DNA of 64,000 nt from IMG/VR virus record IMGVR_UViG_3300021400_000025, positions 86,479-150,478 of that record, one strand, 5' to 3'. The position numbers and the translations under genes are program-made. The stretch comes from a virus. Lineage: Duplodnaviria > Heunggongvirae > Uroviricota > Caudoviricetes. Position 1 is the stretch's first letter; each line of letters starts with the position of its first letter. Positions 1,959 to 51,388 of this stretch are shown here, piece after piece. Under the pieces are notes generated by a model. That model saw nothing but the letters and a program-made list of their open reading frames with translations, searched no databases and had not been told where the DNA came from.

Positions 1959-1990
1959 TATTTACCATTGTGCGTGGGAAATGGTAAATA
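1959..1990. promoter_or_regulatory. divergent pair of late-promoter-like motifs (AATGGTAAATA on each strand), together forming a 10-bp inverted repeat
   Basis: tatttaccattg at 1959-1970 is the reverse complement of aatggtaaata at 1980-1990. The pair lies between the divergent genes starting at 1952(-) and 2024(+). The same motif recurs at 13887, 60071, 61111(-) and 61917. Confidence 0.45.
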
Positions 1991-2023
1991 CCATCCATAG
2001 AGAGATACATAGGAAAATCGACA

Positions 2024-2935: not shown

Positions 2936-5900
2936 AGCAAATACGAGAATTTTGAGTACGACTTCAAGTGGTGTGGGTTCATCTCCATGGACGAAATAAG
3001 CACATTGGTGGTGATGTTCAGTGACAAGAATGGCAAGTATCACTACGCATATGTCAATGAGAAGTCCTATGACGCGGCATATGGATTCACCCCCATACGC
3101 GATTTGGTGGACAACACATTGACGACCAATCCCCAGTTGGTGTTCAACAGAGTTGATTCAATCAAGCAGCTTGGCGATGTCAACATTGCGATGACCGACT
3201 ATGGCTTCTGGGACTTGGAGTTGAACCAGACGGACAACATCACATATTCATTCAGACACACGGGCAAGTCATACAAAGCATGCACATGGAATGGACATCT
3301 CATGACCAATACCAAGATAATACTTCCTGACAATCACCAGATGATGCCTGGGTCAAAGATATGCGAGTACGACAAGCAGTGGACATTGGATGATTCAACG
3401 AACACCCATTGGGTCATGGATGATTCCACAAAAAGCCAATTCGTTGATGTTGTGAGGGTTGATGGCGAGAAGCATAAGTTCGTGGGTGGACTTCCTGGAA
3501 ACTTCGCATTGTATGATGTCAGCGAAAGCAGTCCGGCGCAGTTGCTTGTTGACATGGATGAAAACGAGTTCAAAAGAGCCATCTTCGCGGATTCGGAGTT
3601 GGCATATAGGTTCACTGAATGGCTGTATGGTCAAGTGGTCTATCCAAACAAGGGGCAGAAGTACATAGACGACATAAAAACAGATGCATGGTGGACTGGA
3701 GATTTCCAGACAAAAGCAGAAACCAAGTCCATATCTGATGTGATATACCCACTTTCTTCCAGTTCGTTCTTGGTTGGCAAGTTCGAGGACATACGACATA
3801 TGATTGGCGATGAAGCCACCTCCCTTCAAGATTACTGCAAAGCATTGGCAGACATCAATGCCACGCCACCATCTTCTGATTTGAATTGGCTTGTCTCTGA
3901 TCAATCATCCTTGGAAGAAGCAATCAAGACTTGGTTCCGCGACACTGACAATGAAAATGGATTCAGTCAAAGGCACAAAGATGGTTTCGTTTAGGAGTTG
4001 ATGCCTCTCATTCAGGGGGAATATCCTCTTCTCTTCACGCACTTCAAGCAGTATTTGAACGATTGGTTGAACGAGACCATTGAGATTCAGGAAGGAGATT
4101 CGCAGACACTGACTTTCACCAATGTGGAGGAGATTTCCAGGAAGGTGAAGGACTACATCATGAGTCTGGTTCCAGTATGTCTGGAGATGGTTGGTTCCGA
4201 TCAATCTGATCTTTTGAGGAAGAACCGTCTTCATCAGAACCAGTTCATGCTTGGGAAGTCCCAGGCATTGGACATATACTCTCCCATGAACGCCAGCAAC
4301 GAGATGCTGAAGGCAGTGAAATCTACACCATTCTTCATGAACGCCAATTCCTATAGTGGAATCATCCAGACCAATGGTTCGCCGTTCAAGATTGAATAGA
4401 ATGTGGAATACGCCAAAAAGTCTGGAATGGTGGATGGCGATGGGAATATACAGTTGAATTGGAATGGCATCAAAGAATGGTTGCTTGGTGATGAAGTCAA
4501 GCAGGATGTGAACGTCCTTAAGGCTTTGGTCAAGACCCAGCTATATCGTCCATTGTTCTTCAAGCATGATGACTACGAGCATTTCACTTCTGATGCAAGC
4601 AAGTATTGGTGCGAGACGCAAAAGTCCTTCAACGACCATAATGGGGTTCTTCATCTTGTCAAATGGGAAAAAGATGGTGACGATGGGGAGAAGTGGGGGG
4701 ATTTGGATCCATCTGGATCAGGATTGACGAGTGATGCTTCAAACATGGAATATACTGAGCAGAAATACAACAAAATCTCCAATGTGATATCATACAATGT
4801 TGTTGTCAAGGACGTGCCCATTGTTGATGGCAAGTTCGTCTACAACGATGTTGAGTTCTATGTCGTCAAGGATAAGGACAACAACCCCACATCTGTGTAT
4901 TTCAACGAGTTCCAGAAGGAAATGGAGCAGTACACCCAGAAGATTGAGATTGAGGACAATAAGTTCAAAATCCAGATCAAATTCATTGACCCACGTGGAC
5001 AATTGGCCGTCAAGGATGTTGAATGCGAATTGATTGATGGTGGCACGAAGGTCAAATTGAATGGGCATGAACAGGAAGTCCATGATGGCATGTTCAATGT
5101 TGATGGCGTGTGGTATGTACTCAACAATGAAGAAAACATTGTGAAGTTCTTCAAGGTGGATGACAGTCTTTTGAGGAAATTGGTGGTTTCCCAGGATGGG
5201 CATGTCATGTTCGATAGGTGGAGTCTTGACATGGAGTTTGGTGGCAATGGTGGAAGTAGCGCAACAGTTGACATCACGCGCCACTATGACATGCCTGTTG
5301 TGGATGTCCTGGTCAAGGAATGGTGTGAATATGACAATTAGCCCATAGTCATTGATGAATTGCGCACATTTGAATGGTGGCTGGCGACCAAAATCAACGA
5401 CATGCGCATAATGCCACAATATCAATCCAGTGTGGATGCTCTGGGGAATGGAAATCTATATGATGGTGGGTTGATGGGTTCCCACTGCGTGTTCTCAGTG
5501 GAGAATGTGGTGGTGGATGGATATGTCCAGAGCCGAGGGGTGTTGACGAAGGGCGAGGGCGATTCCGCAGTGCGCATTGATTTGGGCGTTCTCTACAACG
5601 ACCAGATGGAATTGATTTCCACTAGAACGTTCAGGGGGACTGTCAATGATGCTGGCGAGATAGAAGAAGACCCAACTGGTGGATTCAGGTTCATATTGGA
5701 TTCTGAGGATTCCCCACGCAACATCTGCCATTGCTTCTGGTTGGAGGAGTCCAGGTACAAAAGCACACATTCCCACCAGGATGCTGTCGCGGATGTTGAA
5801 TTCATCTTGGACTACGACCAAGACGACAATGGGACGCCAATGGAGCCAGACCTGTCATAGACTGATTGGCAGATTGCTGTTGATTTTGGTGGACGTCCAG

Positions 5901-8900
5901 GCTTCCCCGAGTATCTGCATCTCACCCCAATCGAGGTGGTGACGCTCTCTGCAAACAAGCGCACGATACGGTTCAATGTGGATGTCAATGAGAATCGGGT
6001 GGGGAGCTACATTGTGAATTCCAGGGACGATAAGGTGGATGTTGTTGTGGATGGAAGGAGATATCGTCTGGATTTGAATGCGAGGACAGTGGAATCGTGG
6101 ACTCTCCAGAATGTTGAGGTTAGCACGATGGACTTCTCCACCCAATACACCCCCCAGACCCTTCGCGATGCGATGGTCAAGAACATTCAGCAGTGGATGC
6201 TGGGCGAGATTGTCCATGCCATGTCCCACAACAACGATGAAAATCCAACCATCATGAAACTGGAGTTGACGGACAAGATGAAGTTGTGGCTGGACATGTT
6301 CGCGGACGACGAGAGTGTTCAGATGCACCTTTTGGCTCAACCCAATGCTGACACCCAGTCCGAGGTGAAGTTCAGAGAGATCTTCAAGAACGATTGGGTG
6401 GAGGAGCGCAACGATTCTGGTCAAGGTCTGGCGTGGAAACATCTAAAGGAAACGATAGATGGGGTGTATGGCGATCAGGTGTCCTTGTCGTTGAACACCG
6501 AACCTGCAATGGAGGTTGGATACGACGAGAATGGCGTGGCAAAGACATTCACCCTCAAGGTGCATGTTGATGTCCATGTCATGCAGAACAGAGACTTGGT
6601 GAAAAACACACCAAATTTCAACGACAAATGGATGGCTTCTTCCGCGACCCTGCACGATGTTGTGTTCTATGTGGAATTCACGCCCAAGTTCTCGTATCAG
6701 TCCAACCCCCTTTCATATGATGTGGAATATGGGATTGAATCTTCAGACAGCATTCTCGCCACCATTGATGGCATCATATTCAACAGTCTTGGAAAGACCA
6801 GAACAAAGACATTGGAAGTTCCAATTAGGATAGAGAGATTCAGTTTAGATGGGATGGAATCTGGACAATCTTCGATGTCCGATCTCAATGGTTTGCTGCC
6901 TGACCAGTTGCTTCCGAAATTTCTGGATTCAACAAAGAGCAGAGCTTTGCTTGAATCTGTCAACGAAAAGATTGATTCGTCGGCATCCTCCTTGGTTGTT
7001 GGAAGTCAAGTCGTCGTCAATGCCCAGATGAAGGATGATGGCGATATCCAGACTGGACATGCGTGGGAGATTGGCTCGCCCATACCATCTGAATCATCTC
7101 TGGGTGGTCTTCAATTCATGGAGGAGAGCCGAGGAAGAACCCAGATATCGGGCGAGGAGTATCAATTGGTTTCATCTGACTCGCGGTTGGTTTCTTTGGA
7201 CGACAACAAAGTCTACTTTGATGTGGAGGAGATAGACCGTGGAATCATTGGCGAACAAGGGAAAGTCCATGTCGCATTGACTGATGAGGAAGTCCCCGAC
7301 TCAACCTATTTGAATGGTTGGTTTTCGCTGGAGAACATCAACGACACAATGTATCTCAAAATCAATGCCAAGAATGGTGGTGATTCCATCTCCTTGCCAG
7401 AGAACAAGGGGGAACTGGTTCTTCATGCCAGTGATTTCCCTGAATTCAAGCAAGAGTACAAGTGGACGATGGGGGATTCCACCACTAGTTCCTTGTGGCA
7501 ATACACATCTGAATTGACTGTCCAAGATGAAAACTGGAACTTCAAGGTGGAGAAGATGCGGTTGGAGAATGATGGAACGGGGTCCGAAACATCCTCAACA
7601 GAATCTGAATTGGTTGGTTCAGCCACGAGAAGCAGTTTAAGTTTCTTGCTGCTGGAGGATGACCAACCAAAGCTGGACGAGCAAGACGACAAATGGGTTG
7701 GTTTTCTGTCTGAAGACGAAGCAGATTCCTCCCAGTCTGGTGTTTTCATGGGACCGAGCCTTACAAACCAAGACGATTTCCATGTCAAGTTGATGTGGGA
7801 AGTTGGTGAAAATGTCGAACCAAAATACTATTTGGTGAACGACAATGCACCAGAAGTCTGTGATGTTTCATCAGAGGATGGCGCATTGTTGTTTGATTAT
7901 GAGTTGCCAATCCAAGTTTCCCCATCAAGTGATGAACCATCATCAAGTGATGAACCATCATCAAGTGATGAACCATCATCAAGTGATGAACCCAAGAAGT
8001 ATGGAGTGGATGGCAAATAGAAGATCAGATTCAAGTTCAACATTGATTCCGACACGAATGAAATAACCTTGTCATAGGCGCAATTGGTGAGCGACACCAA
8101 CAACCGCGATGTGCGTGTTCTTCTTGGTGGCATTCCTGACGCGAAGTTGTGGGATGATGCATTGAATTAGAATGAGAATGAGGATGCTTTGGTGGCGAAG
8201 AACAGCATGAAATCCACTGTGGACAGATGCATGATATACCATACTGTGGGCTTGTTGGGAACCAATGCCGAGTATATTCCAACAGACACTTTCACTGTTG
8301 AGTCATAGGAGACCGTGATGGATGGTGGAATTGAGTTTTCGTTCAAGTTGAAAGTCCAGACCATCGTACAGATGCTCTATGTTGATTAGACCACGGACCA
8401 GAATCCACAATAGGTCATATTTGATCAATATCTGCTGGCAAAGACCTCATCAACAGATATCCCATCGGTGGACAGATTGTTCGCGCTCAAGACATTCTCC
8501 GGCGACAACATCATCATCATAGACTCGACATCTTCATCAATAGACAAAATAGACAATGCGTTTGCGTGGATTCCCACGAACCTGAAAAACGGCATCAAGC
8601 GGGATGAGTATGACTTGAAGATGTTCTATTTGAATGATTTCGTGCCGTCAAATTCATCGTTGCCCAGCTTGAGATATTGTCCGTGCGATATTGTCTCACT
8701 GCCCCCAGACCAGGCTCCATCGCGCGATGGCGAAGTATATGGCAGACAATACACTCACAAGAAGGACATTGTGGTTGAACACACAGACATTGATCAGAAT
8801 GACGCAAATGGGAAGTTCTGGTTGAATCTTGCAGATACCCTCAAGTCAATCACAATCATCCCATCCAATGACCAGTATCCTGATTTGATGCCTGAAAGTG

Positions 8901-11590: not shown

Positions 11591-11622
11591 TACATGAGTC
11601 CAATTTTGTTGTATAATAATAT

Positions 11623-11874
11623 ATGATGAATGGAGAGACAAACATGGATTCAGTCGACAACGAGGTCATGGAGAGATTTGTCCCGGCTTTGCTGGAGTAC
11701 AACAATCTGCGGGATGCAGAATGGGATTTCGAGGATGCACATGGTCCGCGCGATCTATGGGATGTGGATGTGTGCGAGAAGCATGATCGTCTTCTTGACG
11801 ACATCATTGAGAGGCGCAAGGAGGTGCAGAACCTTCTGCGCGTCATCACTGGCAATCCCAATCTTGTTTTTTGA
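11623..11874 (+). CDS. hypothetical acidic protein (83 aa)
   Basis: ORF track. A ttgttgtataataatat -10-like element lies upstream. TGA stop. Confidence 0.5.
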   Translation: MMNGETNMDSVDNEVMERFVPALLEYNNLRDAEWDFEDAHGPRDLWDVDVCEKHDRLLDDIIERRKEVQNLLRVITGNPNLVF

Positions 11875-12237
11875 TTTTTTTTTTTCATGAAAAACCACAA
11901 TCTCCCAATTTTTCAATGGGGTTTGCGTATAATTGAAGGTGTTGTGTGAATGTCAGGGTTTCATCGGGTTGGATGACTGAAAAGCGAAAACTCGATTGGA
12001 AGTGGTTCGTCCATAGAAAGAGCGCATGTTTTGACTGTGGCAGTGTGTGTATGTATGTGTGTGTTCTGTTTGGCAGAGGGAAGATGCGCTTTGAACCAAA
12101 TCTTGCTTGTATGATGTATATGGGTTCTTCTTTTTCACCTTCTCCCATCAAAATATTCTTCAAAAGAAGGTGATTTTCGTCTCTTTACAATTGCGCGTTG
12201 CTGTGGTATAATTATCTTGAAGGAGAGATACAACAAG

Positions 12238-12822
12238 ATGTTCCACAGATACTATGGCGTTCCAGACGACGCGAAATACGGCGAGAAGTTCATGTCTCGT
12301 TTTCCAATCTTGTTCCAGGACAGGAAGAAGTCCATGCAGGAGACCTGCATGTGTTGGGGAATTGAATGCCCCAGGGGCTGGTGGTATATTCTGGATCAAC
12401 TATGCACGGTGCTTGAATTCCACAACATGGAGTTCGTCAAGAACCATGGAATAGCCGTAATCGCAGCACAGGTGAAGGAAAAGTTTGGAACTCTCAGGTT
12501 CTATTATGATGTACGTCCTGTTGACGAAAATGGAATTGTGAAGTATGAGCCTGATGAATTGCCTACTGACAAAGATAGAAACCGTATGATTGCGATGGAC
12601 TATCTGGGGATGCTTGCCGACCAGTACATCAGGGAAGCCGAGGACATGACTGAGAACACTTGCGCAAAGTGTGGAATTCCATTGGATAAGGACAACAAGG
12701 TTGAGACAAAGGGTTGGATTACCTATGTCTGCAAAGAGTGCGATGGAAAGCCCTATGATGACGAGGAGGATGCAGATGAAGAACCTGCAAGAGAAGCTGG
12801 CGAAGCTGAGAGAGTTTCTTGA
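12238..12822 (+). CDS. Cys-rich (zinc-ribbon-like) protein, about 194 aa
   Basis: Track ORF 12217..12822. The likely true start is the ATG at 12238, after an aaggagag SD and a tgtggtataat -10. There are CxxC...CxxC pairs. Confidence 0.55.
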   Translation: MFHRYYGVPDDAKYGEKFMSRFPILFQDRKKSMQETCMCWGIECPRGWWYILDQLCTVLEFHNMEFVKNHGIAVIAAQVKEKFGTLRFYYDVRPVDENGIVKYEPDELPTDKDRNRMIAMDYLGMLADQYIREAEDMTENTCAKCGIPLDKDNKVETKGWITYVCKECDGKPYDDEEDADEEPAREAGEAERVS

Positions 12823-13261
12823 CCTTGACGTGGAACTCAAGGAAGCCCTTGTGCCCATCATCAAAGACACCTATGACTACCATTGTGATGGGGTTGAGGG
12901 ATACGATTTCTCTGAAGATGGTAAGAGCATTGAGTGCCATTATTCCTACAGATGTCGTGGCGAGTCTGACACGGATTGGTGCAAAATTCCAATCAAGTGG
13001 CTTGAAGATGGCTATGACTACAAGGCAGACTATGAGGAAATGAGAAGGAAGTCCGAAGAGGAGAGGAAGCGCTGGGAGGAAGAGGAGAAGAAAAAGGCGC
13101 AGGAGCGAAAGGAGAAGGCTGAGTACGAAACCTACCTCAAATTGAAGGAGAAGTATGAAAATGCTGGGGACAACCACATTACGTCTGTATGGATGGAACC
13201 AGACCCCAACATGCCTAAACCCCTAATCATAGACATCGAAACTGGGAAGGAACTTTCGTGA
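12773..13261 (+). CDS. hypothetical K/E-rich coiled-coil protein
   Basis: Track ORF 12671..13261. It overlaps the previous gene, so the start is probably the ATG near 12773. TGA stop overlaps the next start (GTGATGG). Confidence 0.45.
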   Translation, partial: QMKNLQEKLAKLREFLDLDVELKEALVPIIKDTYDYHCDGVEGYDFSEDGKSIECHYSYRCRGESDTDWCKIPIKWLEDGYDYKADYEEMRRKSEEERKRWEEEEKKKAQERKEKAEYETYLKLKEKYENAGDNHITSVWMEPDPNMPKPLIIDIETGKELS

Positions 13262-13521
13262 TGGCAAAGCATGAGACTACAATATCATTGAGCGCAGCTT
13301 CCAAGAACCTAAGAATTGCGTCTGTGTTTTGCGCCATTGGTCTTGTGTTGATGGTGTGCCATGTGCCTTGGTGGGTGTGCACTGCTTTCTTCGCATTGTC
13401 TGGTGGATTTCTCTTGTCCATGCTCATGTGCGTATTGGATGTGCAAGAGTTCAAGATGAAGCAGAACCAGAAGATAATCGAATTGCTGTCTAGGATTGTA
13501 AATAAGAATAACAACAATTGA
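13258..13521 (+). CDS. small membrane protein with two predicted TM helices (holin-like topology)
   Basis: ORF track. Hydrophobic stretches VFCAIGLVLMVCHVPWWVCTAFFALSGGFLLSMLMCVL, then a charged tail. Confidence 0.45.
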   Translation: MMAKHETTISLSAASKNLRIASVFCAIGLVLMVCHVPWWVCTAFFALSGGFLLSMLMCVLDVQEFKMKQNQKIIELLSRIVNKNNNN

Positions 13522-13537
13522 CAACAAGAGGCTTATT

Positions 13538-13819
13538 ATGATGAAAGAAAGAACGATGAAAAGCAAGAGAATGATGCGAAATGTGTATGTTCTGGTGATT
13601 GATTCTAACAGCAGTGGTTCTGCCGAGGACATTTCCACAATCGTTTCAACCAGTGTTGATTCATTGATTGACTATGTCATCAACGAGGAACTGCCTGAGC
13701 AAGGTTATTCTCCTGAGGACATTGAGGAGATGGGCGCTGAGCTGGAACTTTCTGAACATTTGTATTGGGAAGATCCAGAGGGCATTAGGTATATCATCAA
13801 CGAATCGAAGATGATTTGA
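13538..13819 (+). CDS. hypothetical acidic protein (93 aa)
   Basis: ORF track. Confidence 0.45.
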   Translation: MMKERTMKSKRMMRNVYVLVIDSNSSGSAEDISTIVSTSVDSLIDYVINEELPEQGYSPEDIEEMGAELELSEHLYWEDPEGIRYIINESKMI

Positions 13820-13886
13820 CGACATTCATCAGAGTTCAAGATTCAGGTTCGGACTTCGGTTCGGACCTTTTCTTTTGTCGTTGAAT

Positions 13887-13897
13887 AATGGTAAATA
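13887..13897 (+). promoter_or_regulatory. late-promoter-like motif AATGGTAAATA, 28 nt upstream of ATG 13926
   Basis: Same motif as at 1980, 60071 and 61917. Confidence 0.4.
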
Positions 13898-13925
13898 CGC
13901 ATACAAAGACGAAAGGTGATTTGCC

Positions 13926-15509
13926 ATGAAGAACGAACTTGATTGCATATTGAAGAACGAGATTCTGGAGGGATGCATGGATTCCCTGTTGGAATTCTCC
14001 GAATCTGGCGATGGCTCTGCGGTGAAGGTGTATGGTAAGATTGCGGGATTGCCTTGCATTGGCAGGACATATTTCACCACGCAGAAGGAGTTGGATGTGA
14101 CGAACGAGGATGCCCAGACATAGATGATGCAGAAATATGGGGCGGAGACCTATGGCTCCTCTGCGCAATTGAGGCAATAGAGCGCAGATAGATAGAAGGG
14201 GACAGGAACTGAGACGGGGATTGGGTCTGTCGTGGACAGCAAAGACTCCTTGATAGATTGCTCGTTCAAGCCATTGATGAAGCTTCCTGTGAAGTTCCGC
14301 GAATCCATCTGGGGTGGGAATCCAGGCAAGGATTTTCAGGACAAGTGGCAGAAACTGGTTGAGTTGATACAGGGGAAAAGCAAAGACGAAAACTGGGCGA
14401 AGAGCAACCCCAAGATGAAGGAATTGGTTGGGAAGAGGTTTTCGCCTGGTTCTGGGGTTGATAGTCTGGACAACACCAAGCCGTGGAGCGAAGTGCAGAC
14501 CATATTCAACGACAAGGATGTCCAGGCGATGTTGAATCGGGAAAAAGATTTGAACAAGAAGTGGACTGAAGTCCGCAATGCGTGGAATGAGTGGAGTGAA
14601 TCTTCGGGTGGTGGCTCATCTGGCTCTTCTTCTGGTGGAAAGGGAGGTGGTTCTGATTCATCGAAATCGGGTTCTTCTGAATGGGATCCCAGATAGACAT
14701 ACAGGATAGACATCACCACGAAATTCGACAAGAACTGGTTTCAGCGAAAGTTCAAGAGTGGCATGCTCAACAAGATGATAATGGGTTTGAAGACGATGGC
14801 CATGGCGAATCTGGCAAGCGACAGCAAGAACGATAAGAAGGGTTACAAGTACACCGGAAACGAGATGCTTTCCCAGGACGAGCGGAAATTGGACAAAATC
14901 CAGTGGAATATGACGAACAAGGTGGCGAAGGACTACATCACTTATCTTCTTGGGTGGAGCAGAAAGAAGGAGTATTACATGGACGGTTCCCAGCCCAAGG
15001 CTGCATCCACTGCGGATCTTCGAGTTGATGCTGGCGTGGGGAAGAAGTTCGCAGACAAGGCGTTGAGCAATAGAGGCATATTGGGAAGGTTGAGATAGAA
15101 GCTGTTTTCTGGTGGTCAGTCCAACAATGTGGTTTCTGTGGCGTTTCAGTTGGCTGATTGGCGCGATGGATGGAAACTGGTGGAGGAGGATAAGAAGAAG
15201 GGTGGTGAGGAAGGATCTTCTGGTAGGGAGGATGGCGGAAAAGAGGGAGGTGGCTCTGCTGGCTCCGGTGGAAAAGATGGTGGTTCGTCTGGCTCAGGAT
15301 CAACTGGAGTGGGTGGAGGTGGATCGTCTGGGGCTGCAGGCTTGGGCGAGAAGGACATGGACAGTCTAATGACGCTTCTTCAACGGGTCAGGAATGTGGA
15401 GAAGGAGGTATATGGAAAGCAGATGGATGAATCCACATCCAAGGACAACAATGTGGACGGACTTGTGGATGAAGTTCTAATGGCGTACATAGGAGAGAGC
15501 AATGGCTAA
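13926..15509 (+). CDS. composite recoded ORF of about 527 codons with 5 in-frame TAGs (14121, 14178, 14193, 14694, 15096). Gly/Ser-rich linkers. Ends at TAA
   Basis: Track ORFs 13926..14123, 14232..14696, 14763..15098 and 15129..15509 are all in frame 0. Only TAG codons lie between them (verified). A TGA at 13917 closes the frame upstream. Confidence 0.5.
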
Positions 15510-37511: not shown

Positions 37512-38558
37512 ATGTGGAAAGGAAACAACGGCAAAATGATTGAAGTGGAGTCAAAGGCAAGCAGGGTCTCAATTCCAGTATCCAGAGCAGTGTTCTCGGA
37601 TTCTGCGATAAGCCTCTACGACATCTTCAACAAGGAGGTGTTTGACGATACTGTTTCTGTCCAAGATGGCTTCCAGAAGTTTGTTGAATTGGTGTATTCT
37701 GGATTCAGTTTCCAGCCACCAACGATGAACACGGTTCCAGTCAAGTTCCCAGAGAATGTCCCAGATGTTGACCCCAACATGGTCCTTGTGGCAGTGAGTG
37801 GTGGACTTGACTCCATAGCGCAGATGCTTTTCCTCAAGGAAAGTGGGCGTTCAATCGTTGCATACACGATGGCTAACATGAACCGAAGTTGTGGTGGTCA
37901 GGAACTCAAGGCGATGAAGGCTGTATGCGAGAAGGTTGGTGTTCCGATTGTTGAGGCGAGATACGTTGGCAACTTCAAGAAGGACAATCCATACAGAAAG
38001 CACTGGGCAGAGAACCCAATCAAGAACCAGATGATAATGGCAACGATGGTGGATTGGTGCATCGAGAATGGGTGCAGGACGATTAGCCTTGGAGAGAAGG
38101 ACAACTTCTTCCTCAAGGACTGCGTTCCAGGAACAAACTTCACCGACGCATCCGAGGTGTCGAGGACTTTCATTGAGTGCGTGAACAGACATGTTGGGAT
38201 TGACTATCTGACGATGGATTTGTCCATCACAAAGCTGGACGAGTTGAAGATTGCCATGAAGTATGGGGTTGAGGATCTTCTGTTCAGTTGCTTCTCGGCC
38301 CAATCCTCCAACAAGTGCCATGAAATGAACCAACGGAAGTATGGCATCACGTTGTGGAGGAACAACTGTGGATGCTCTTGCAGGAAGTGCGCACACTACA
38401 ACCTTCTTCTCCATTATGGTGGGATCAAGGCGTTCCCACAGGATTTCGTGGACGCCTGTTGGAGAAAACTCTACTCCACGAAGGAATTGAAAAACACGTT
38501 CAACCCAAGCATGGACGAAAAGACGAGGATGGAGAACTTGTTCAACTTTTCCGCGTGA
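37512..38558 (+). CDS. queC: PP-loop ATP pyrophosphatase, QueC-like (7-cyano-7-deazaguanine synthase family) with an N-terminal extension
   Basis: SGGLDS PP-loop motif, plus a C-terminal Cys cluster (CGCSCRKC) like the QueC zinc site. The length (348 aa) is atypical for QueC. Confidence 0.5.
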   Translation: MWKGNNGKMIEVESKASRVSIPVSRAVFSDSAISLYDIFNKEVFDDTVSVQDGFQKFVELVYSGFSFQPPTMNTVPVKFPENVPDVDPNMVLVAVSGGLDSIAQMLFLKESGRSIVAYTMANMNRSCGGQELKAMKAVCEKVGVPIVEARYVGNFKKDNPYRKHWAENPIKNQMIMATMVDWCIENGCRTISLGEKDNFFLKDCVPGTNFTDASEVSRTFIECVNRHVGIDYLTMDLSITKLDELKIAMKYGVEDLLFSCFSAQSSNKCHEMNQRKYGITLWRNNCGCSCRKCAHYNLLLHYGGIKAFPQDFVDACWRKLYSTKELKNTFNPSMDEKTRMENLFNFSA

Positions 38559-38566
38559 GGTGAATC

Positions 38567-39523
38567 ATGATTGGCGAAGACCTTGACATATTGCAGATAC
38601 CAGAGAATGCCGGAATCCAATGGTTGAAGGACAATACCTTCAAGATTGGAGCTGATTGCCAGGAATTGTTCGAGTCGTTTTTCCTTGTGAACGAGGTTCC
38701 TATATGCGAGATGCCAGACTACATGTGTCTTCCAGTCCAGTGCGAGATTCTGAGGAACTACAGATTCAGATACAGGGTTGTGGTTGATGGGAATGGGACA
38801 AGGTTCCTGTGCATTTTCAAGATGGTTGAGCCTCTTGTCGCGGTGAATGGGAAGAAGCATGTCCATTTCATCTTCACATACAGGATTCTGCCATCCACGA
38901 AGGGTGCTGACGTGTCGGAGGTTCGTGGAAAATGGATAGGAGCCGGAGTTGACGAGGAGATTGTGGTCTCCAGCGAAAAGCCAATCAACTGGAACTTTTA
39001 CAACCTCAAGGAGGACGTTCCGAATCTGTTTGACCACAGATGGATGCAGCATCACAGGATTCCAAGGATGGAGGGACTTGTTGAGGTTCGCACGTCCCTT
39101 GAAGGGATTGTTGATGGGGTTGGAAACTTGGTTCGGGCGTGGTACTTGTCACATGGTGAAAGTGGAATGAGGAACGATTTGAGGTGCGTCTCGATGCCAA
39201 CTACGCCATTTCACTACCACAGGGCGTATCTTTTTGATGGAAATGTCGTTGGGTACGTCTCTGGGACAAGGTTCTGTGGTCAGTTGTTCTCCATGATACG
39301 GAAGAACACGGCGCAGTGTGGATTGATTGGGGACAAGTTCGTTGCTCACAACCTCGGTCACTTCATGATGTACGATACGCACAGAATGCTGCTTGACGAT
39401 GGGAAAGCAGACGCGATGTTCGTGTTTGGGAAGAGCCAGTCAAATCCAAACCTCACGAAGCACAAGATGGAGCTGTTCAGACATTCCGTGCCATATTCAA
39501 AGAACCGACTTTTACTTTCTTGA
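38567..39523 (+). CDS. hypothetical protein (318 aa)
   Basis: ORF track. Confidence 0.5.
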   Translation: MIGEDLDILQIPENAGIQWLKDNTFKIGADCQELFESFFLVNEVPICEMPDYMCLPVQCEILRNYRFRYRVVVDGNGTRFLCIFKMVEPLVAVNGKKHVHFIFTYRILPSTKGADVSEVRGKWIGAGVDEEIVVSSEKPINWNFYNLKEDVPNLFDHRWMQHHRIPRMEGLVEVRTSLEGIVDGVGNLVRAWYLSHGESGMRNDLRCVSMPTTPFHYHRAYLFDGNVVGYVSGTRFCGQLFSMIRKNTAQCGLIGDKFVAHNLGHFMMYDTHRMLLDDGKADAMFVFGKSQSNPNLTKHKMELFRHSVPYSKNRLLLS

Positions 39524-39540
39524 CCGTTTGTGGTGAACTA

Positions 39541-39590
39541 CCACGATGCTAAAGACATCGTGGCTTCACGGATGTTCTGCTTCGCAGAAC
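39541..39590 (-). ncRNA. two perfect hairpins (ccacgatg-N7-catcgtgg and gttctgc-ttc-gcagaac) at the 3' end of tnpB. Candidate omega-RNA / IS right-end structure
   Basis: Stems read directly in the sequence. Their position matches where IS200/IS605 TnpB guide RNAs are encoded. Confidence 0.35.
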
Positions 39591-40843
39591 GACCCGCGCT
39601 GTATTCGCCTTGGCGAATCACCCCTACGTTCCATAGGTACTTTAAGATTTTTCTCGACAAGGTCCTTGATGTTCAACATGTTCTGTGCGGCATGGATGTC
39701 TCTGTCTTGTTCGTATCCACACTAACACTTGTATGTCCTATCATTCAAGGATAGTTCGTTCATCTTATGGCAATGAGGACACCACTTCGTTGTTGGGATG
39801 TACTTGTCCAATATGATGACATTATCAAGTTTCATCAACTTGGATTTGATTGTTCCCATGCAACTGTGTTGAATAACTTTTGACATTCCTTTTTGCTTGT
39901 GCCATTCTGCCAGTTGCTCGTCTTGTATCACGATTGTGTCATATTGCTTTAGCATATGAACTATCTTGTTTGCCTTGTCTTTTTTCTTATTCGTCAGCTT
40001 CTGGTACTGACGACGGATTCTCTTGATTGTCTTGTATCTCCTGTTTGAACCTTTCTTTTGACGTTGCAGTTTCTTCTGCAACATCTTGAGTCGTTCACTT
40101 TCTTCAACAGATACGTCAAGTTTCTCACCTTCTGAAGTCGTTATGTTCGTTTTGATGCCAAAATCCAGACCTATTTCCTTGTCGTTGGTTTTGGTTTTTG
40201 GCATCTTGTTCTTGTCTATGTAGCATGTCACCTTAAGATAATAGCCATCTGGTTTCTTCAACAAATTTGCATTGGCATATTCATCTACATTCGATAATTG
40301 ATGTGTTCCACGAACTAATATCTTGCCATGTATTCCTTGTATCTTGATCTTGTTTTCTGACTTGAAACTATATGTCTATCCATATTGCTTGAGTGGAATG
40401 CAATTCAATTCAGACTTGAACTGCAAGTTGCCAAATTTCTAATGTCCCCTTTTGACAAGTTGTATTATGGCCATTTGATTGGAGACCATTCTTGCCAAGA
40501 TTGCCTGCTTCTATGCTGCCGACAAGTATTTCAATTCAGATTGAATCAAGTTCTTGTCCTTGTCGTAGTGGTTTACTGTTTTGATGTTTGTGGAGTTGAT
40601 GTCGGATAATCTCAATCCAGATTGTTGATGCAGATTGAGGACATGATTGTAGAACCACTTTCCCTCAACAAAGAGCATGTCAAGTTCTTCGTGTTGGCGT
40701 TTGTTCAATCGTTTCTCTACAATCTTTAGTTCATATGACTTGACGACTTGGTTCTACCTGCGAAGTCTTGTTTGGCTTCGGGTTGCAATAATCTTGTTCT
40801 TCTTTTCGTCAGAACAGACCAATCTATTGTCAATATCCTTCAT
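39566..40843 (-). CDS. tnpB: IS605/IS1341-family TnpB (RuvC-like RNA-guided nuclease). Intact only if 5 in-frame TAGs (40754, 40511, 40439, 40376, 39722) are sense codons
   Basis: Manual minus-strand translation gives one frame from ATG 40843 to TGA 39566, broken only by TAGs. RuvC-I is EIGLDFGIKT, RuvC-II is VIQDEQL, the zinc finger is CPHC...C(TAG)CGY, and RuvC-III DRDIHAAQNMLNI lies after TAG 39722. Track ORFs 39722..40264 and 40511..40708 are fragments of it. Confidence 0.65.
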
Positions 40844-40982
40844 CACATATATTATTTACACAAATCTATACTAAAACTCACTATAATTCTTTACAAAAAT
40901 TCAAGAAAGTTGTATAATATTGATAGCGATTTACATGCGATACTAAAGATATCGCATCTATCTCGCCAGGTTCAATGTATAA

Positions 40983-41384
40983 TTGAACTGTGAAGCAATA
41001 GGACAGGACGGATACATGTACACAGTAAAGGCAAACATTCCACAGTACGAGCCAAAGAACGCGCCACCAAAGAGCCTCATGGACACCTTGAAGATGGACA
41101 AGTTCAAGGAGTTGATGTCGGGTATCGAGAAGTCTGGCGTGTCACCAGAGGAGAAGCAGTTTCTCAAGATAGCCGCGTTCAGGCATGTTGTGTTCAACTA
41201 TGGGAAGATTGCCGACTATTATGCCTGCGCCTCTCCCGAGATGCAGAAGCTGATGGAGGACTCCGCCCTTGTGATAATCGACATGGACGATGCGATTGCG
41301 AAGGGCTATGTGCGCCTTTCCGAGTCAATCAAGAAGATAGTGGCGAAAAGGCTCGCTGACGAGGGGAAGACGGATGCGAAATGA
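40983..41384 (+). CDS. hypothetical protein (133 aa)
   Basis: ORF track. A tgtataattgaac -10 lies upstream. Confidence 0.5.
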   Translation: MNCEAIGQDGYMYTVKANIPQYEPKNAPPKSLMDTLKMDKFKELMSGIEKSGVSPEEKQFLKIAAFRHVVFNYGKIADYYACASPEMQKLMEDSALVIIDMDDAIAKGYVRLSESIKKIVAKRLADEGKTDAK

Positions 41385-42246
41385 CTTCTGCATATTCTGT
41401 CTGACCTACAAGAGGCCGGACAACATGTACACGGACAAGACTCTGCGCGAGGCTGGGTATACTGGCGACATCCAGTACATTGTTGGGGACGATGATCCAA
41501 CCGTTGGAAGGTACATCGAGAAGTATGGGGCCGACAAGGTTCACGTTTTCAACAAGGAAGAGGTTGGAAAGACATTTGACACCTGCGACATAGAGGGTTC
41601 AAACAAGGTCATAGTGTACGCAAGGAACTATTGCTTCACCGTCGCCAAACAACTTGGGTTGAAGTATTTCGCCCAATTCGACGATGACTACGATAGGTTC
41701 GAGTACAGATTTCCAGTTGGGGAGAAGTTGAAGACAATCAACGTGAGGGAGTTCGATCAGATAGTTGACCTCATGATTCAGCTTCTTGACGACACCGGCG
41801 CCCTGACTTGCGCCTTTGCCCAGAATGGGGATTTCCTCGGAGGGGTTCAAGGGGACGTGACACACAACAGAATGAAGAGAAAGGCGATGAACTCGTTTTT
41901 CTGCCGAACTGACAAGCCATTCAAGTTCTTTGGAAGGATCAACGAGGACGTGAACGCCTACTGCACCCTTGGTTCAAGGGGAGAGCTGTTCTTCAGCGTT
42001 GTTGACGTTGCGCTCCACCAGAAGACAACCCAATCCAACAAGGGTGGGATGTCGGATGTCTATGTTGATGATGGCACGTACCTCAAATCGTTCTACACGG
42101 TGATGAACTGTCCATCTTTCGTGAAGATAGCTGCCATGGGGAACACCCCCGAGACAAGGCGCATACACCACAGGGTGTCGTGGGAGACTGGAGTTCCAAA
42201 GATAATCAGCGACAAGTACAGAAAGCCAAGGGAAGGATTGGATTGA
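41374..42246 (+). CDS. hypothetical protein (290 aa) with a DxD-like acidic motif (QFDDDYDRF), possibly a glycosyltransferase-like enzyme
   Basis: ORF track. The functional guess is weak. Confidence 0.4.
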   Translation: MRNDFCIFCLTYKRPDNMYTDKTLREAGYTGDIQYIVGDDDPTVGRYIEKYGADKVHVFNKEEVGKTFDTCDIEGSNKVIVYARNYCFTVAKQLGLKYFAQFDDDYDRFEYRFPVGEKLKTINVREFDQIVDLMIQLLDDTGALTCAFAQNGDFLGGVQGDVTHNRMKRKAMNSFFCRTDKPFKFFGRINEDVNAYCTLGSRGELFFSVVDVALHQKTTQSNKGGMSDVYVDDGTYLKSFYTVMNCPSFVKIAAMGNTPETRRIHHRVSWETGVPKIISDKYRKPREGLD

Positions 42247-42250
42247 CAAA

Positions 42251-43645
42251 ATGACGTATCTTGAACAGCACAGAGACGAGATATTCAAGAAGTACAGCGA
42301 TGAGGAGTTGTCAAAGGACGTTGACAACTACGTTTCGGGCAAGGGGAGGATGACCAAGTTCATCAACCACTTCTTTGAGGAGTGCATCTTCAACTGCAAG
42401 GACAACAGACTGAAGCTGACTCCAATGGAGGCGTTCCAGAGGGACGATATCCTTGACAAGGTGCGTTCCCTTTTCGCAAATTCCCCAAAGCTGTACACAG
42501 GCTCGGAGATTGAGAACATCAAGAAGCACTTCAGCCTTGGATGGATTGGGTCAAGGAAAGTTGCGAACTTCTGTCCAAAAAACGCAAGGACAATCTACCA
42601 GAGGTACTTCAACGACCTCAATGGTCTGAACATCCTTGACACCTCCTGTGGATTCGGCTCAAGGATGCTTGCCACGATACTGAATGGGGCCAACTACTAT
42701 GGGTTCGATCCAAACAAAGAACTGTATGGATGCCTCAAGAAGAGCCACCAGTGGCTGATTGACCACAAGAAGGTTCCAGAGGAAAGAGTCTGCGACATAC
42801 ACTGTTGTGGAAGCGAGGAGCATGTTCCAGAACTTGATGGGAAGATGGATCTCTCGTTCACCTCCCCCCCATACTTCAACGTTGAGTCCTACTCGGACGA
42901 TAATGGCGCATCAACGAGGAACCTTGACAACTACGAAGGATGGCTGTGCGAGTTTGTCGCTCCAACCCTTGTGAACACCTACAAGTACCTCAAGGTTGGT
43001 GGGATTGCGATGATCAACATCAAGAACCTGACAAGGGGACAGAAGAAGCCTCTGTACGATGACTTCATGCGTGGGTTCCAGGCAATTCCTGGGTTCGAGT
43101 ACGTTGAGACTTTCTCCATGAAGCATCAGCACAAGAGGACGCTCAAGGAAGACATGACCTATGTTGGGTTCGAGGAGCCTGTGATGGTGTACAAGAAGGT
43201 GAAGGACGAAGACCCCGACCTTGAGAAGGTGAAAGCCGCGTTGACAAGTGGAATCGACACGTCAAAGCAAGCAAGGAAGTCAACAAGGAAATACGCCCCA
43301 GATTCATCCAACACCCAGATTGCCAAAACTGAATCCAGAAAGAAGCAGCCATTCCAGTTGATAATGGACGACATCTCGGGGATTGACCCAAGGACATTGG
43401 GCAAGTTGATGGTTGAGTTGAAGAAAAAGGACATTGGGGTTGAGGTTGTGCATGGCGATGAATGGCTCTACAAGAAGCCAGATGTTGTCTACAAGCTGTG
43501 CGAGGGACTTGATGTCAAGTTGAACAAGTTCAAGAATCTCGATGGATCCATTGTTGAGAAGTACATGGGCAGGAACAAGCTGGTCAGACTCCAACCCGGG
43601 GAGAAGCCAACCTTTGAGCAGATTCCCCCTTTACTGTTCGGTTGA
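42251..43645 (+). CDS. DNA amino-methyltransferase (N6-adenine or N4-cytosine)
   Basis: Motif I LNILDTSCGFGSRM is a SAM-binding FxGxG-like motif. Motif IV is TSPPYF (the (D/N/S)PPY motif). Confidence 0.7.
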   Translation: MTYLEQHRDEIFKKYSDEELSKDVDNYVSGKGRMTKFINHFFEECIFNCKDNRLKLTPMEAFQRDDILDKVRSLFANSPKLYTGSEIENIKKHFSLGWIGSRKVANFCPKNARTIYQRYFNDLNGLNILDTSCGFGSRMLATILNGANYYGFDPNKELYGCLKKSHQWLIDHKKVPEERVCDIHCCGSEEHVPELDGKMDLSFTSPPYFNVESYSDDNGASTRNLDNYEGWLCEFVAPTLVNTYKYLKVGGIAMINIKNLTRGQKKPLYDDFMRGFQAIPGFEYVETFSMKHQHKRTLKEDMTYVGFEEPVMVYKKVKDEDPDLEKVKAALTSGIDTSKQARKSTRKYAPDSSNTQIAKTESRKKQPFQLIMDDISGIDPRTLGKLMVELKKKDIGVEVVHGDEWLYKKPDVVYKLCEGLDVKLNKFKNLDGSIVEKYMGRNKLVRLQPGEKPTFEQIPPLLFG

Positions 43646-43663
43646 TTTGTTGTATACTGAACT

Positions 43664-44320
43664 ATGGAAAAGAGCAGTTCAGAGTTTGTCCCAGGATCCA
43701 ATTTTGGGCAGTGTTCAACCCTTCCACCCGACAGCGAGTTGGAGAGGTTGGATTCATCGGATTTCATTGGAAACTTCCTTGATGGGGAGTCAGTTGTCCA
43801 GAACAGAATCTGGATAATTTCAGATACACATTTTCATCATCGTCGGATTTTGGAGTACGAGGCTGAATTCAGACCATTCAAGGACAGGGACGAAATGGAT
43901 GCTGAACTTGTGAAGAGATGGAACAAGGTTGTCGGTCCATCTGACGTTGTTTTCCATCTTGGGGATTTCGCCCTTGCTGGAAAGAACTACATATCCTCAA
44001 TTGTCCACCAGTTGAATGGGCGCAAGATTCTCCTTCTTGGGAACCATGACAGGGAGAGCAGGATTGACTGGATTTCGTGTGGGTTCGACAGTGTGCATGA
44101 ACGCCCTTTCCTTCTTGATGGCAGATTCATTCTGTCCCATGAGCCACTTGACAAGATTCCAGATGGAATGGTGAACATATACGGTCATGTTCATGCCAGT
44201 TCCTACTTCAACACGATTGATTCAAACAGAATTTGCGTGTGCGTTGAGAGGTGGAACTGCGCCCCAATAGAGTACGAGTTCGTCAAGCGGATGTTCGCAA
44301 CCACCCCCGAGGGTGTATAA
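43664..44320 (+). CDS. calcineurin-like metallophosphoesterase
   Basis: Motifs SDTHFHH, GDF and GNHD. Confidence 0.7.
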   Translation: MEKSSSEFVPGSNFGQCSTLPPDSELERLDSSDFIGNFLDGESVVQNRIWIISDTHFHHRRILEYEAEFRPFKDRDEMDAELVKRWNKVVGPSDVVFHLGDFALAGKNYISSIVHQLNGRKILLLGNHDRESRIDWISCGFDSVHERPFLLDGRFILSHEPLDKIPDGMVNIYGHVHASSYFNTIDSNRICVCVERWNCAPIEYEFVKRMFATTPEGV

Positions 44321-44787: not shown

Positions 44788-44923
44788 TGGAAAAACAATG
44801 TGCAGTTTTCAATGCATTTCTGTAAATAATAGTCAAGACAATCTAGTATAATTAAACAAATGTACACAGGGTGGTAAAACAAACATACACCCACAAACAA
44901 AGAGAAACAAGAGGAAAAACAAA

Positions 44924-45649
44924 ATGAAGAAAATAATGACAATTACATGTGGCGCGATGCTGGCTCTGGCTGGTCTCGCTGCTCCAACGGCCACGCCTTG
45001 CTGTGGCTCCACTGGCGAGACTTCTTGCCAGATTTGGTTCAAGGGAACTGGAACTGGAAAGATCTCCACTGGTGTCAAGGATCAGACCTACAAGACCGTC
45101 AAGGGTCTCAAGATCAAGAGCTGCATCCTCGTGATTGGCGATGACAGTGAGTCCAACAGGACGGCTGTTGTCCGCATCACTGGCACGAAGACCAAGGTGG
45201 GTGATTTCACGCAGGAGCTGGTTTGCTCCGAGTTCACGTGGAACATCTTTGGCAAGAACATCGACAAGGCACTTGCAGGCTCCAAGAAGGAACTTTCGCT
45301 TGAGAGCGAGATTTACTTCAAGGCAGCTGACGAGGACGAGACCACGCAGGTCTGTGGTGTTCTGTTCGGCACGGTCAAGGCGAAGTCCACAGGCACAGGC
45401 TGCACTCCATGTGGCGATGTTGGTGGAATCAAGTACACGCCAGTCAAGTTCGTTGGCAAGTATGTTGGCTTCGCGCCAGCGACTGGTTGCCAGTGCGCCA
45501 CTGAGTTGACCTACGAGCTGGGCGAGGGTTCTTGCTCTGACAAGAGCTGCCTTGAGTTCGTTGAGCCAGAGGGCGATCAGCAGGAGTATTTCTGTGGCGA
45601 CATCGTTCTGAAGTACGACTCCAAGAATTCCGGATACAAGGCTCGTTGA
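44924..45649 (+). CDS. secreted Cys-rich protein (241 aa) with a signal peptide
   Basis: MKKIMTITCGAMLALAGLAAP. Many Cys residues. SD and a tagtataat -10 lie upstream. Confidence 0.55.
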   Translation: MKKIMTITCGAMLALAGLAAPTATPCCGSTGETSCQIWFKGTGTGKISTGVKDQTYKTVKGLKIKSCILVIGDDSESNRTAVVRITGTKTKVGDFTQELVCSEFTWNIFGKNIDKALAGSKKELSLESEIYFKAADEDETTQVCGVLFGTVKAKSTGTGCTPCGDVGGIKYTPVKFVGKYVGFAPATGCQCATELTYELGEGSCSDKSCLEFVEPEGDQQEYFCGDIVLKYDSKNSGYKAR

Positions 45650-45682
45650 TTATATCATCGACGATCTTTGTCTGGGTGCATG

Positions 45683-50704: not shown

Positions 50705-51388
50705 ATGAAAATGGGAACAGTGGAAATATTGGGAAACACGGAATCAAAGCCAATCACCATGATAGGTGAGATGGCGGGGATATGTTGGGGTGCAGATACA
50801 TCTGACGATGGCAAGAACCACAAGAGGGGCGTGGATTGCATCAAGTCGAACCACGGAAGGGCTTTGGAATATCCTTCCATATATCTTGTGCTTGATGGCT
50901 ATTCTGCCAAGGTGATACGCGAGTTCTACACACATATAATTGGGAATACACGTCTTCAAGCCTCCACCAGATACATAGACTATTCAAAGTGCTTTGATGT
51001 GGTTGTTCCAAAGTCGGTGGCTGTGAATGACGAGGCGTTGAAAACATGGAGGGAGTTCATGGCAAATGTTCCAGCCACAATCCGGAAGTTGAAGGAACTT
51101 GGCATTCCAACCGAAGATGCAACTAATGTATTGCCATTGGCATATGTCACCAAGATTGTTGTCAAGATGAATCTTCGTTCCTTGATGAACATGGCGGAAA
51201 TGAGGTTGTGCAATCGAGCCTATTGGGAATTCAGGGAATTGATGAGTGATATCTTGACTGAACTTGCGAAGTATTCTGACGAATGGGAAGAACTCATATA
51301 TGATCTGAAGGTGTTCAAGCCAAGGTGTGAATTGCTTGGCTACTGCCCCGAGACAAGGGGTTGTGGGAAGAAGAACAAGAAGGAGTGA
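50705..51388 (+). CDS. ThyX-like protein (flavin-dependent thymidylate synthase family, divergent)
   Basis: The 227-aa length fits ThyX. REFYTHIIGNTRLQASTRY aligns to the ThyX signature RHRxxxxxxxSxRY, but RHR is replaced by YTH. Confidence 0.45.
   Translation: MKMGTVEILGNTESKPITMIGEMAGICWGADTSDDGKNHKRGVDCIKSNHGRALEYPSIYLVLDGYSAKVIREFYTHIIGNTRLQASTRYIDYSKCFDVVVPKSVAVNDEALKTWREFMANVPATIRKLKELGIPTEDATNVLPLAYVTKIVVKMNLRSLMNMAEMRLCNRAYWEFRELMSDILTELAKYSDEWEELIYDLKVFKPRCELLGYCPETRGCGKKNKKE

Follow-up and report, generated by a model that had tools for sequence, protein, structure and literature searches.

Does a transposon gene broken by five stop codons still make its nuclease when the genome around it may read that codon as an amino acid? 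The question is raised by a stretch of 64,000 nucleotides (here called the window) that corresponds to positions 86,479 to 150,478 of IMG/VR virus record IMGVR_UViG_3300021400_000025, a member of the Caudoviricetes, and that carries on its minus strand a tnpB gene of the IS200/IS605 type with five in-frame TAG codons. A preliminary description, drawn up from the letters of the window, had proposed that TAG is decoded in this gene. Our results make it very probable that the locus is an intact nonautonomous element of the IS200/IS605 family, composed of tnpB and an omega-RNA and lacking tnpA, in a rumen phage of ~417 kb that reads TAG as glutamine (Gln). Judged by its sequence and that of its relatives, tnpB appears to be a working gene and not a wreck, within a functional recoded TnpB element.

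The tnpB reading frame

The frame runs from ATG 40843 to TGA 39568-39566 and contains no TAA or TGA; translation reproduced exactly the coordinates and the five TAGs, with no other stop, that had been claimed for it. In the two alternative frames of this segment, TAA or TGA occurs 20 and 21 times, and by our own arithmetic the chance of a frame this long being free of both is roughly e^-20. The start was placed at ATG 40843 because ATG 40848, 5 bases upstream, is out of frame and meets a TGA at once.

A decaying relic has to be weighed at this point, that is, a tnpB pseudogene that took up nonsense mutations after insertion and gives no protein. Such a relic would account for five in-frame stops under the standard code, for a public gene call that recovers only a 160-amino-acid OrfB_IS605 fragment (at 5156-5638 of locus L184, an identical 417-kb public contig, inside tnpB and on the window's minus strand), and for the lack of tnpA nearby. 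It does not account for the stops being TAG in five out of five cases. Single-base routes from the gene's own codons to a stop end in TAG in 89 of 212 cases (10 of 36 for transitions), and we calculate that five TAGs out of five would arise by chance with a probability of ~0.013, or ~0.0016 for transitions only. A pseudogene should also show mixed stops and frameshifts, as the preliminary description argued, and neither was found in the window copy. Taken with the data on selection and shared sites given below, these points make a relic very improbable.

For protein searches, the TAGs were entered as X. The product matches NCBIfam NF040570 (TnpB) with 105.5 bits against a cutoff of 100 over amino acids 43-391 of 425, a span that includes four of the five TAGs, and it also matches PF01385 (OrfB_IS605; 40.6 against a cutoff of 30.5) and PF07282 (Cas12f1-like_TNB; 38.7 against 26.3). 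Solved TnpBs are matched by sequence with E values of 1e-10 to 1e-15 overall (8iaz at 4.5e-15; ISDra2 TnpB 8bf8/8exa/8h1j at ~6e-10). The motifs noticed earlier, EIGLDFGIKT, VIQDEQL, CPHC...C*C and then GYEQDRDIHAAQNML after TAG 39722, are all present and in that order. In the family alignment D227, E309, D382, C355, C358, C373, and C375 are invariant, and in a set of ~70 relatives down to 31% identity position 309 is acidic, E or D. The CxxC...CxC Zn finger is present with the TAG of codon 374 between C373 and C375, which leaves the last TAG flanked by the Zn finger on one side and the RuvC-III motif on the other. The stretch that follows TAG 39722, CGYEQDRDIHAAQNML, is among the best conserved parts of the protein, and both the TnpB hidden Markov model (HMM) and the family alignment place it in frame and homologous, as had been predicted. 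The open reading frame (ORF) thus reads as a full-length TnpB with a Zn finger and RuvC motifs, and it is likely to be competent as a nuclease. Residues 307 to 309, at 39921-39929 (-), belong to a family motif I-Q-D-E-Q, in which the codon of Gln307 is TAG in eight relatives.

The gene does not resemble the phage that carries it. Its TAG density is 11.8 per 1,000 codons against 4.4 in the TAG-containing ORFs of the phage, its GC content is 39.6% against 48% for phage genes, and it favors CAA and GAA where the phage favors CAG and GAG. Composition and TAG density therefore point to a gene that came from elsewhere with its TAGs already aboard.

Relatives and the meaning of TAG

DNA of relatives was drawn from IMG/VR, one-genome-per-species contigs, Joint Genome Institute metagenomes, and ENA assemblies. 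A homolog search returned 1,975 homologs, the best of which (72 to 87% identical) were apparently uninterrupted and had Gln opposite four of the five TAGs. We rejected the Gln residues of proteins P0001 to P0010 as support for decoding as Gln, since their DNA shows that the database had translated TAG as Q; P0001 (loci L001 and L002) and P0003 (L003 and L004) are TAG-interrupted in DNA, and the Gln of the closest homologs is hence not independent evidence. A comparison with host copies of the insertion sequence, which had been suggested earlier, calls for caution for this reason, the nearest database proteins being P0001 and P0003. The Gln test was redone with copies verified to be free of in-frame stops.

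Among 40 distinct copies with at least 50% identity, 27 have 2 to 10 in-frame TAGs in the conserved core and 12 have none, while TAA or TGA occurs in 0. The TAGs occupy 145 cells in 37 alignment columns, and there the 12 uninterrupted copies have Gln in 54% of cases (cell weighted) against a background of 4.6%, with glutamate (Glu) the next residue at 6.6%. Columns 135, 182, 256, 281, 307, and 325 have Gln in all 12 standard-code copies, and each has TAG in 6 to 10 recoded copies. Close relatives in the clade of the window copy have CAG or TAG in one and the same column. These comparisons indicate that the TAGs of the tnpB family behave as Gln codons.

The residue opposite each TAG of the window copy, which the preliminary description had proposed to record, was Gln at codon 135, mostly Glu at codon 374, and variable at codons 30 and 156. 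The closest verified uninterrupted copy (P0011, locus L005, ~76% identity, on a 334-kb contig) has TCC, CAA, CAG, AAC, and CAG at the five sites. At codon 111, CAA (Gln) is found in five of the six close standard-code relatives, GAG in the sixth (L180), and CAA again in the TAG-bearing L182; across the wider 12 standard-code relatives the column is mixed (Glu in four, Gln in three, and others in four). The column of codon 374 is GAA or GAG in most relatives, and the one standard-code relative with Gln, L005, has CAG in an identical context (C-Q-C-G-Y-E-Q-D-R-D).

Three of the five window TAGs thus lie in variable columns, as might be found if TAG were decoded as something other than Gln (e.g., pyrrolysine, tyrosine, or tryptophan) or were passed only by inefficient readthrough. 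Archaeal TnpBs with TAG as pyrrolysine have been described (bioRxiv 10.1101/2024.09.30.615893), and the window holds no suppressor tRNA. We nevertheless consider such decoding very unlikely, given that Gln is the commonest residue opposite TAG family-wide and far ahead of Glu, that the six invariant-Gln columns take TAG repeatedly, that CAG and TAG interchange at the same column in close relatives, and that the known reassignment of TAG in phages is to Gln (PMC10879173).

The ratio of nonsynonymous to synonymous substitution rates (dN/dS) is 0.10 to 0.20 between the window copy and ten relatives, at dS values of 0.8 to 1.2, and 0.09 to 0.17 among TAG-bearing copies. TAGs 30, 111, and 156 are common to the window, L001, L003, and L097, copies that differ at 50 to 60% of their synonymous sites. 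The TAGs are therefore old, with constraint on the protein persisting after they were acquired. In a neighbor-joining tree the window copy clusters with three other TAG-bearing copies, and the sister groups to these four are one mixed pair and one clade with the standard code. Nearly all members of a second large clade, which numbers more than 20 copies, are TAG-bearing, with 3 to 10 TAGs each. The recoded copies thus form deep lineages and not scattered casualties. A pseudogene is untenable because the stops are TAG only, dN/dS is 0.10 to 0.20, TAG sites are shared between copies that differ at more than half of their synonymous sites, and TAGs fall on Gln columns in 27 of the 40 relatives; neither the end structures nor the RNA structure shows damage. 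The earlier proposal that TAG is decoded here was borne out on each of these points across the family.

Some recoded copies sit on very large contigs (432 kb and 109 kb). The one-genome-per-species search gave four loci, of which three, at 60 to 62% identity, are TAG-interrupted and lie on two Sphaerochaetaceae contigs and one Bacillales contig of metagenome-assembled genomes (MAGs); the fourth is an archaeal MAG contig with 34% identity. L094 (DJSP01000043.1, "Bacillales bacterium UBA6331") and L095 (CAVFYD010000022.1, "Sphaerochaetaceae bacterium") each hold a TnpB copy whose only in-frame stops are six TAGs, and they are probably recoded phage contigs wrongly binned into bacterial MAGs. Recoding of the flanks of other copies was judged from sums of ORF lengths under different stop sets, which were too noisy for use.

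Ends and movement of the element

Boundaries were read from copies aligned together with their flanks, the sequence outside being unrelated. At the right end every copy reads ...GTAGTTCAC (or AGAGTTCAC) and diverges directly after GTTCAC, which sets the end in the window at 39533. The left limit could be off by as much as 7 nt, as the three closest copies have ATTATAC in common, reaching 40983.

Both ends carry subterminal hairpins, and no terminal inverted repeats were seen. The core hairpin of the left end, ATGCGATA-TCTTTAG-TATCGCAT at 40957-40935, lies inside an outer stem TGGCGA/TCGCTA that shows paired changes when compared with L003 (GGCAA/TTGCC). At the right end, the hairpin 39563-39541 (CCACGATG-TCTTTAG-CATCGTGG) has the same loop as that of the left end, and a second hairpin, GTTCTGC-GAA-GCAGAAC, lies at 39590-39574. 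These are the two perfect hairpins that had been noticed at the 3' end of the gene; both are real and kept in relatives, the one at 39563-39541 with compensatory changes. In L005 the loop of this terminal right-end hairpin contains a 20-nt insertion at 7290-7310, TTGAATAACGAAGTTATTCT, itself a small hairpin, with the stem kept.

TTTAC or TATAC abuts the left end in all copies with a readable upstream flank (13 loci, ~10 distinct insertion sites), and the sequence upstream of it is unrelated between copies. We infer that T(T/A)TAC is the transposon-associated motif (TAM) of the element. No target-site duplication was seen among the compared copies. L003 and L004 are the same element with five in-frame TAGs, 99.93% identical over 1,458 bp, in unrelated flanks; the same TAG-bearing element at two unrelated sites means that TAG-bearing copies have moved recently. 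No second copy of the element was found in the window.

The 1,444 bp of the element are filled by tnpB and the two ends, leaving no room for tnpA, and the element is a nonautonomous tnpB-only member of the IS200/IS605 family, like many members of that family. It lies antisense between two plus-strand genes, inside a TAG-free block. The candidate promoter box TAGATTTG matches TAnnTTTG, the consensus of the Bacteroidota -7 box, and the stretch around it, TAGTATA..TTTGTGTAAATAATATATG, is kept in relatives. A scan for sigma-70 promoters gave no minus-strand site and no more matches than in shuffled sequence, and a terminator scan gave none.

RNA structure and guide position

We aligned the 220 nt that lead up to the right boundary in 11 copies whose C-terminal tail is that of the window copy. 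RNAalifold predicts 52 pairs in this alignment, 9 of them with compensatory changes, and all 9 fall within a scaffold at the 3' end of tnpB. Its hairpins lie at 39637-39623, 39619-39602, 39598-39567, and 39564-39540, the last two corresponding to the hairpins of the preliminary description, and are followed by a 3' tail, AGUUCAC. Paired cells make up 98.6% against 27 to 45% with partners slid, cells with double changes number 31 against 9.9 +/- 2.2 in shuffles, and the minimum free energy of the window sequence has a z-score of -3.7 against shuffles. The scaffold ends exactly where the copies diverge, and the C-terminal peptide of TnpB differs between RNA classes, which would fit a constraint of the RNA on this part of the gene. 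This is how an omega-RNA scaffold would look, and we predict it to be one. The earlier placing of an omega-RNA at the 3' end is thus supported by a covarying structure and not by a family match, as Rfam holds no covariance model for this omega-RNA; when Rfam was searched, neither an omega-RNA nor an intron family was matched, be it at the gathering threshold or with E values of up to 10.

Directly 3' of the right end, 39532-39513 is where a TnpB guide would lie. This 20-nt flank, CACAAACGGTCAAGAAAGTA, overlaps the stop codon TGA 39521-39523 of the plus-strand gene 38567-39523 and occurs once in the window.

The phage and its use of TAG

The whole window is contained at 100% identity in a 416,990-bp ENA contig (~417 kb; ERZ28612966, SHIW14-1_SAMN02144230-S007_METAG-scaffold_7), and the cow rumen contig AUXO011466021 likewise matches it at 100% identity. 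The sole related phage contig that was found, an IMG/VR viral contig (L012), is 91 to 97% identical to the window phage and stops ~800 bp short of the insertion.

With TAG as sense, a single stop-free frame at 1988-11590 (+) spans 3,200 codons, or 3,188 from the first ATG, and has 15 in-frame TAGs. Four large plus-strand ORFs (2024-20668) together contain 23 in-frame TAGs in 5,257 codons. The 34 plus-strand genes at 21 to 62 kb of the window contain 0 in 7,479 codons and terminate with TGA (26) or TAA (8) and never with TAG, and TAG terminates 0 of the 38 listed genes when the four large ORFs are included. The host sequence accordingly reads as that of a phage with TAG recoded to Gln. The split in coding is sharp, with TAGs at 2000-20700 (+) and TAG-free coding at 21000-64000 (+), and on the plus strand the trinucleotide TGA is ~7 times more common than TAA or TAG.

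PHROGs gave no match for three of the four TAG-containing ORFs (13926-15509, 15502-18561, and 19097-20668), and Pfam gave none for 13926-15509 and 19097-20668. Neither the insertion neighborhood nor the 1,019-amino-acid TAG-containing ORF was matched by megablast and tblastn in 50,697 GenBank phage records. Between the TAG-containing ORFs lies a TAG-free ORF of 165 amino acids at 18574-19071 (+) with a TnsA-like endonuclease N-terminal domain (PF08722, 3.6e-15), which could be a homing-type endonuclease standing on its own.

The genes around the insertion encode PP-loop/QueC-like, TET-associated glycosyltransferase, DNA methylase, phosphoesterase, ThyX, NAD ligase, T4-type RNA ligase, and SAM lyase family proteins, and the neighbors of the element form a nucleotide metabolism and DNA modification set. 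The cluster at 37512-44320 (+), with the PP-loop/QueC-like ATPase, the glycosyltransferase, the methylase, and the phosphoesterase, suggests DNA hypermodification. TAG-free coding and this gene content lead us to suppose that the block is expressed early. A TAG-recoded nuclease antisense within an early gene block had been proposed; the nuclease, its orientation, and the recoding all stand, and the word "early" is a supposition from TAG-free coding and gene content.

The interval 44852-45649 is 798 bp open on both strands in the same register, bounded by TAA/TTA at 44849-44854 and TGA/TTA at 45647-45652; 44924-45649 (+) is probably the true gene there, and the antisense frame seems to be fortuitous. 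As for tRNA genes near other copies, locus L124 has a tRNA-Arg(TCT) near TnpB, as the window does, and in L126 an array of eight tRNAs adjoins a standard-code TnpB copy.

Table 1. Coordinates of the element, its parts, and other features of the window
Feature	Position	Strand	Basis or remarks
IS200/IS605-type tnpB-only element, 1,444 bp, one copy in window	39533..40976	-	Similarity limits among copies
tnpB coding sequence, 425 codons + TGA	39566..40843	-	Translation; HMM matches; dN/dS; intact only with TAG = Gln
In-frame TAG, codon 30	40754..40756	-	TAG also in L001, L003, L097; standard-code relatives Ser/Lys, column variable
In-frame TAG, codon 111	40511..40513	-	TAG also in L001, L003, L097
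In-frame TAG, codon 135	40439..40441	-	Gln in 12/12 standard-code relatives; CAG in L001, L003; TAG in L097, L182
In-frame TAG, codon 156	40376..40378	-	TAG also in L001, L003, L097; standard-code relatives Asn/Thr/Val, column variable
In-frame TAG, codon 374	39722..39724	-	Between last two Zn finger Cys, upstream of RuvC-III; unique to window copy
Left-end structured region	40919..40976	-	Fold -24 kcal/mol
Candidate target site/TAM, TATAC	40977..40981	-	Directly 5' of left end
Predicted omega-RNA-like scaffold, ~105 nt	39533..39637	-	Overlaps tnpB 3' end and right end; RNAalifold
Putative guide position, CACAAACGGTCAAGAAAGTA	39513..39532	-	Flank directly 3' of right end
Candidate promoter box, TAGATTTG	40861..40868	-	18 nt upstream of ATG; read from sequence
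TAG-containing phage ORFs beside the 1988-11590 frame	13926-15509, 15502-18561, 19097-20668	+	TAG-as-sense reading
ThyX gene	50705-51388		Member of the nucleotide metabolism and DNA modification set

How the element may work

On the model of ISDra2 and IS608, a Y1 transposase supplied in trans would excise and insert the single-stranded element next to T(T/A)TAC. An RNA covering the 3' end of tnpB and the right end would run on into the adjacent flank, its guide, and TnpB with this RNA would cut phage genomes free of the element at ATTATAC followed by CACAAACGG...; the predicted insertion-free site on the minus strand is 5'-ATTATAC-CACAAACGGTCAAG-3', the first hyphen after ATTATAC marking the junction. 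Recombination with an occupied copy would then restore the element, a form of homing. With the first TAG at codon 30, a functional nuclease could not be made before TAG is suppressed, so that the nuclease would be confined to recoding-competent, probably late, infected cells and the element would be inert in a standard-code host. The TAG at codon 30 and the split between TAG-free and TAG-containing genes of the phage lead us to expect expression late in infection only.

Several observations weigh against this account of an intact, mobile element in a Gln-decoding phage. No Y1_Tnp match was found among the 65 ORFs of the window, so that mobility needs a helper not seen here, and the gene calls around the relatives include no Y1 transposase. 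A search of IMG/VR with the exact junction pattern gave no empty site, and all contigs with exact flanking proteins are identical to the window and each carries the insertion. A tRNA(CUA) suppressor is absent from the 64-kb window and from 23 related loci, and the decoding machinery is thus not seen there; the sole tRNA of the window is tRNA-Arg(TCT) at 23184-23259 (+), and as the window covers 64 kb of a ~417-kb contig, a CUA gene could lie elsewhere. HMM alignments to solved TnpBs put the invariant Gln307, and not Glu309, on the canonical RuvC-II Glu column. Finally, covariation of the end hairpins could reflect recognition of single-stranded DNA by TnpA and not an RNA, although the last hairpin could serve both as a signal for TnpA and as part of the RNA, roles that are compatible.

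Three of these points, namely, the insertion in every contig found of this phage, the missing tnpA, and a Gln on the RuvC-II Glu column that recalls inactivated TnpB derivatives, would suit an exapted TnpB that serves the phage itself (e.g., as an RNA-guided regulator or as a weapon against competing phages). We think this improbable. Neither transposon end is damaged, nor is the target motif; near-identical TAG-bearing copies lie in unrelated flanks, and the composition of tnpB is foreign to the phage. The acidic residue at 309 is kept, with D227 and D382, in the family down to 31% identity, and the guide position is the local flank, as in a transposon, with no other match in the window. An intact mobile element remains our preferred reading.

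Tentatively, and with less confidence than in the recoded element itself, we suggest that for a selfish RNA-guided nuclease the alternative genetic code is at once a gate and a fence, with whole TnpB clades dependent on the decoding of TAG as Gln. As a gate, it would let the nuclease be made only once a recoded phage had switched the code, when many copies of the phage genome are available for homing. As a fence, it would let elements spread among recoded phages and leave them dead on arrival in standard-code hosts. If dependence on the code truly limits the nuclease in time and place, this would be a natural case of genetic-code-based containment of a selfish element. Recoding would then influence how mobile elements pass between phages and bacteria, and a large pool of compact nucleases would be hidden from standard annotation.

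Apart from this suggestion, the locus indicates that mobile elements in recoded phages adopt the code of their host and still move. It also provides evidence for TAG as Gln at the protein level from a well-understood family, independent of the phage's own poorly characterized genes. That a resident transposon drifts toward the code of a recoded phage would be expected by a specialist and is no deep surprise. Surveys of TnpB diversity and of phage-borne nucleases probably miss such TAG-interrupted copies, because gene calling under the standard code gives a 160-amino-acid fragment and two TAG-interrupted copies are found in bacterial MAG bins.

Comparison with known systems

The closest parallels are the tnpB-only elements of the IS200/IS605 family (ISDra2 TnpB, PDB 8exa/8h1j, with IS608 for the chemistry of transposition). 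The window element is like them in having TnpB domains above curated cutoffs, a candidate D..E..D set of RuvC residues and the CxxC...CxC Zn finger, subterminal hairpins at both ends, a conserved pentanucleotide at the left end, and a structured RNA over the 3' end of tnpB that stops at the right-end boundary and is followed by flank. It differs in that it needs TAG to be Gln, has no tnpA, and has an RNA without an Rfam family; compared with solved TnpBs, the protein has low identity and an I-Q-D-E-Q motif with Gln on their RuvC-II Glu column. IStrons, which combine a group I intron with TnpB, similarly place TnpB and an omega-RNA within a gene block of another genome. We rejected this identity, as the Rfam search found no group I intron and the element is intergenic and antisense to its neighbors.

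Among RNA-guided nucleases with in-frame TAGs, the nearest likeness is to the TnpB and IscB genes of archaea that read TAG as pyrrolysine (bioRxiv 10.1101/2024.09.30.615893), which are likewise split or discarded by standard annotation. There, the residue is pyrrolysine and the genes lie on archaeal chromosomes, and no evidence of TAG enrichment is reported; here, the residue is Gln, the carrier is a phage, and TAG-bearing copies form deep clades.

Standard-code phage genomes, such as those of epsilon crAss-like phages (PMC11054128), have also been reported to contain TnpB genes, and like the window they show a TnpB transposon on a phage; in that paper a search for "TAG" and "suppressor" gave nothing, and "alternative genetic code" occurs once. 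Such transposons are common in phages: we found TnpB matches in 203 GenBank phage records, all of them at most 35% identical to the window protein. A full-text literature search, with most subscription journals outside its coverage, found no report of TAG-to-Gln TnpBs in phages.

Recoding of TAG to Gln is itself established in gut phages (e.g., PMC10879173). The window phage resembles the code 15 phages of gut and rumen (crAss-like phages and Lak-type megaphages) in having TAGs in a subset of its genes, no TAG stops, a very large genome, and an origin in a rumen metagenome, and it differs from them in that the recoded gene belongs to a selfish mobile element and is not a structural or lysis gene. 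TnpB transposons in phages and phages that read TAG as Gln are thus both known, and the part for which we found no report is the lineage-level pattern of TnpBs with TAG read as Gln.

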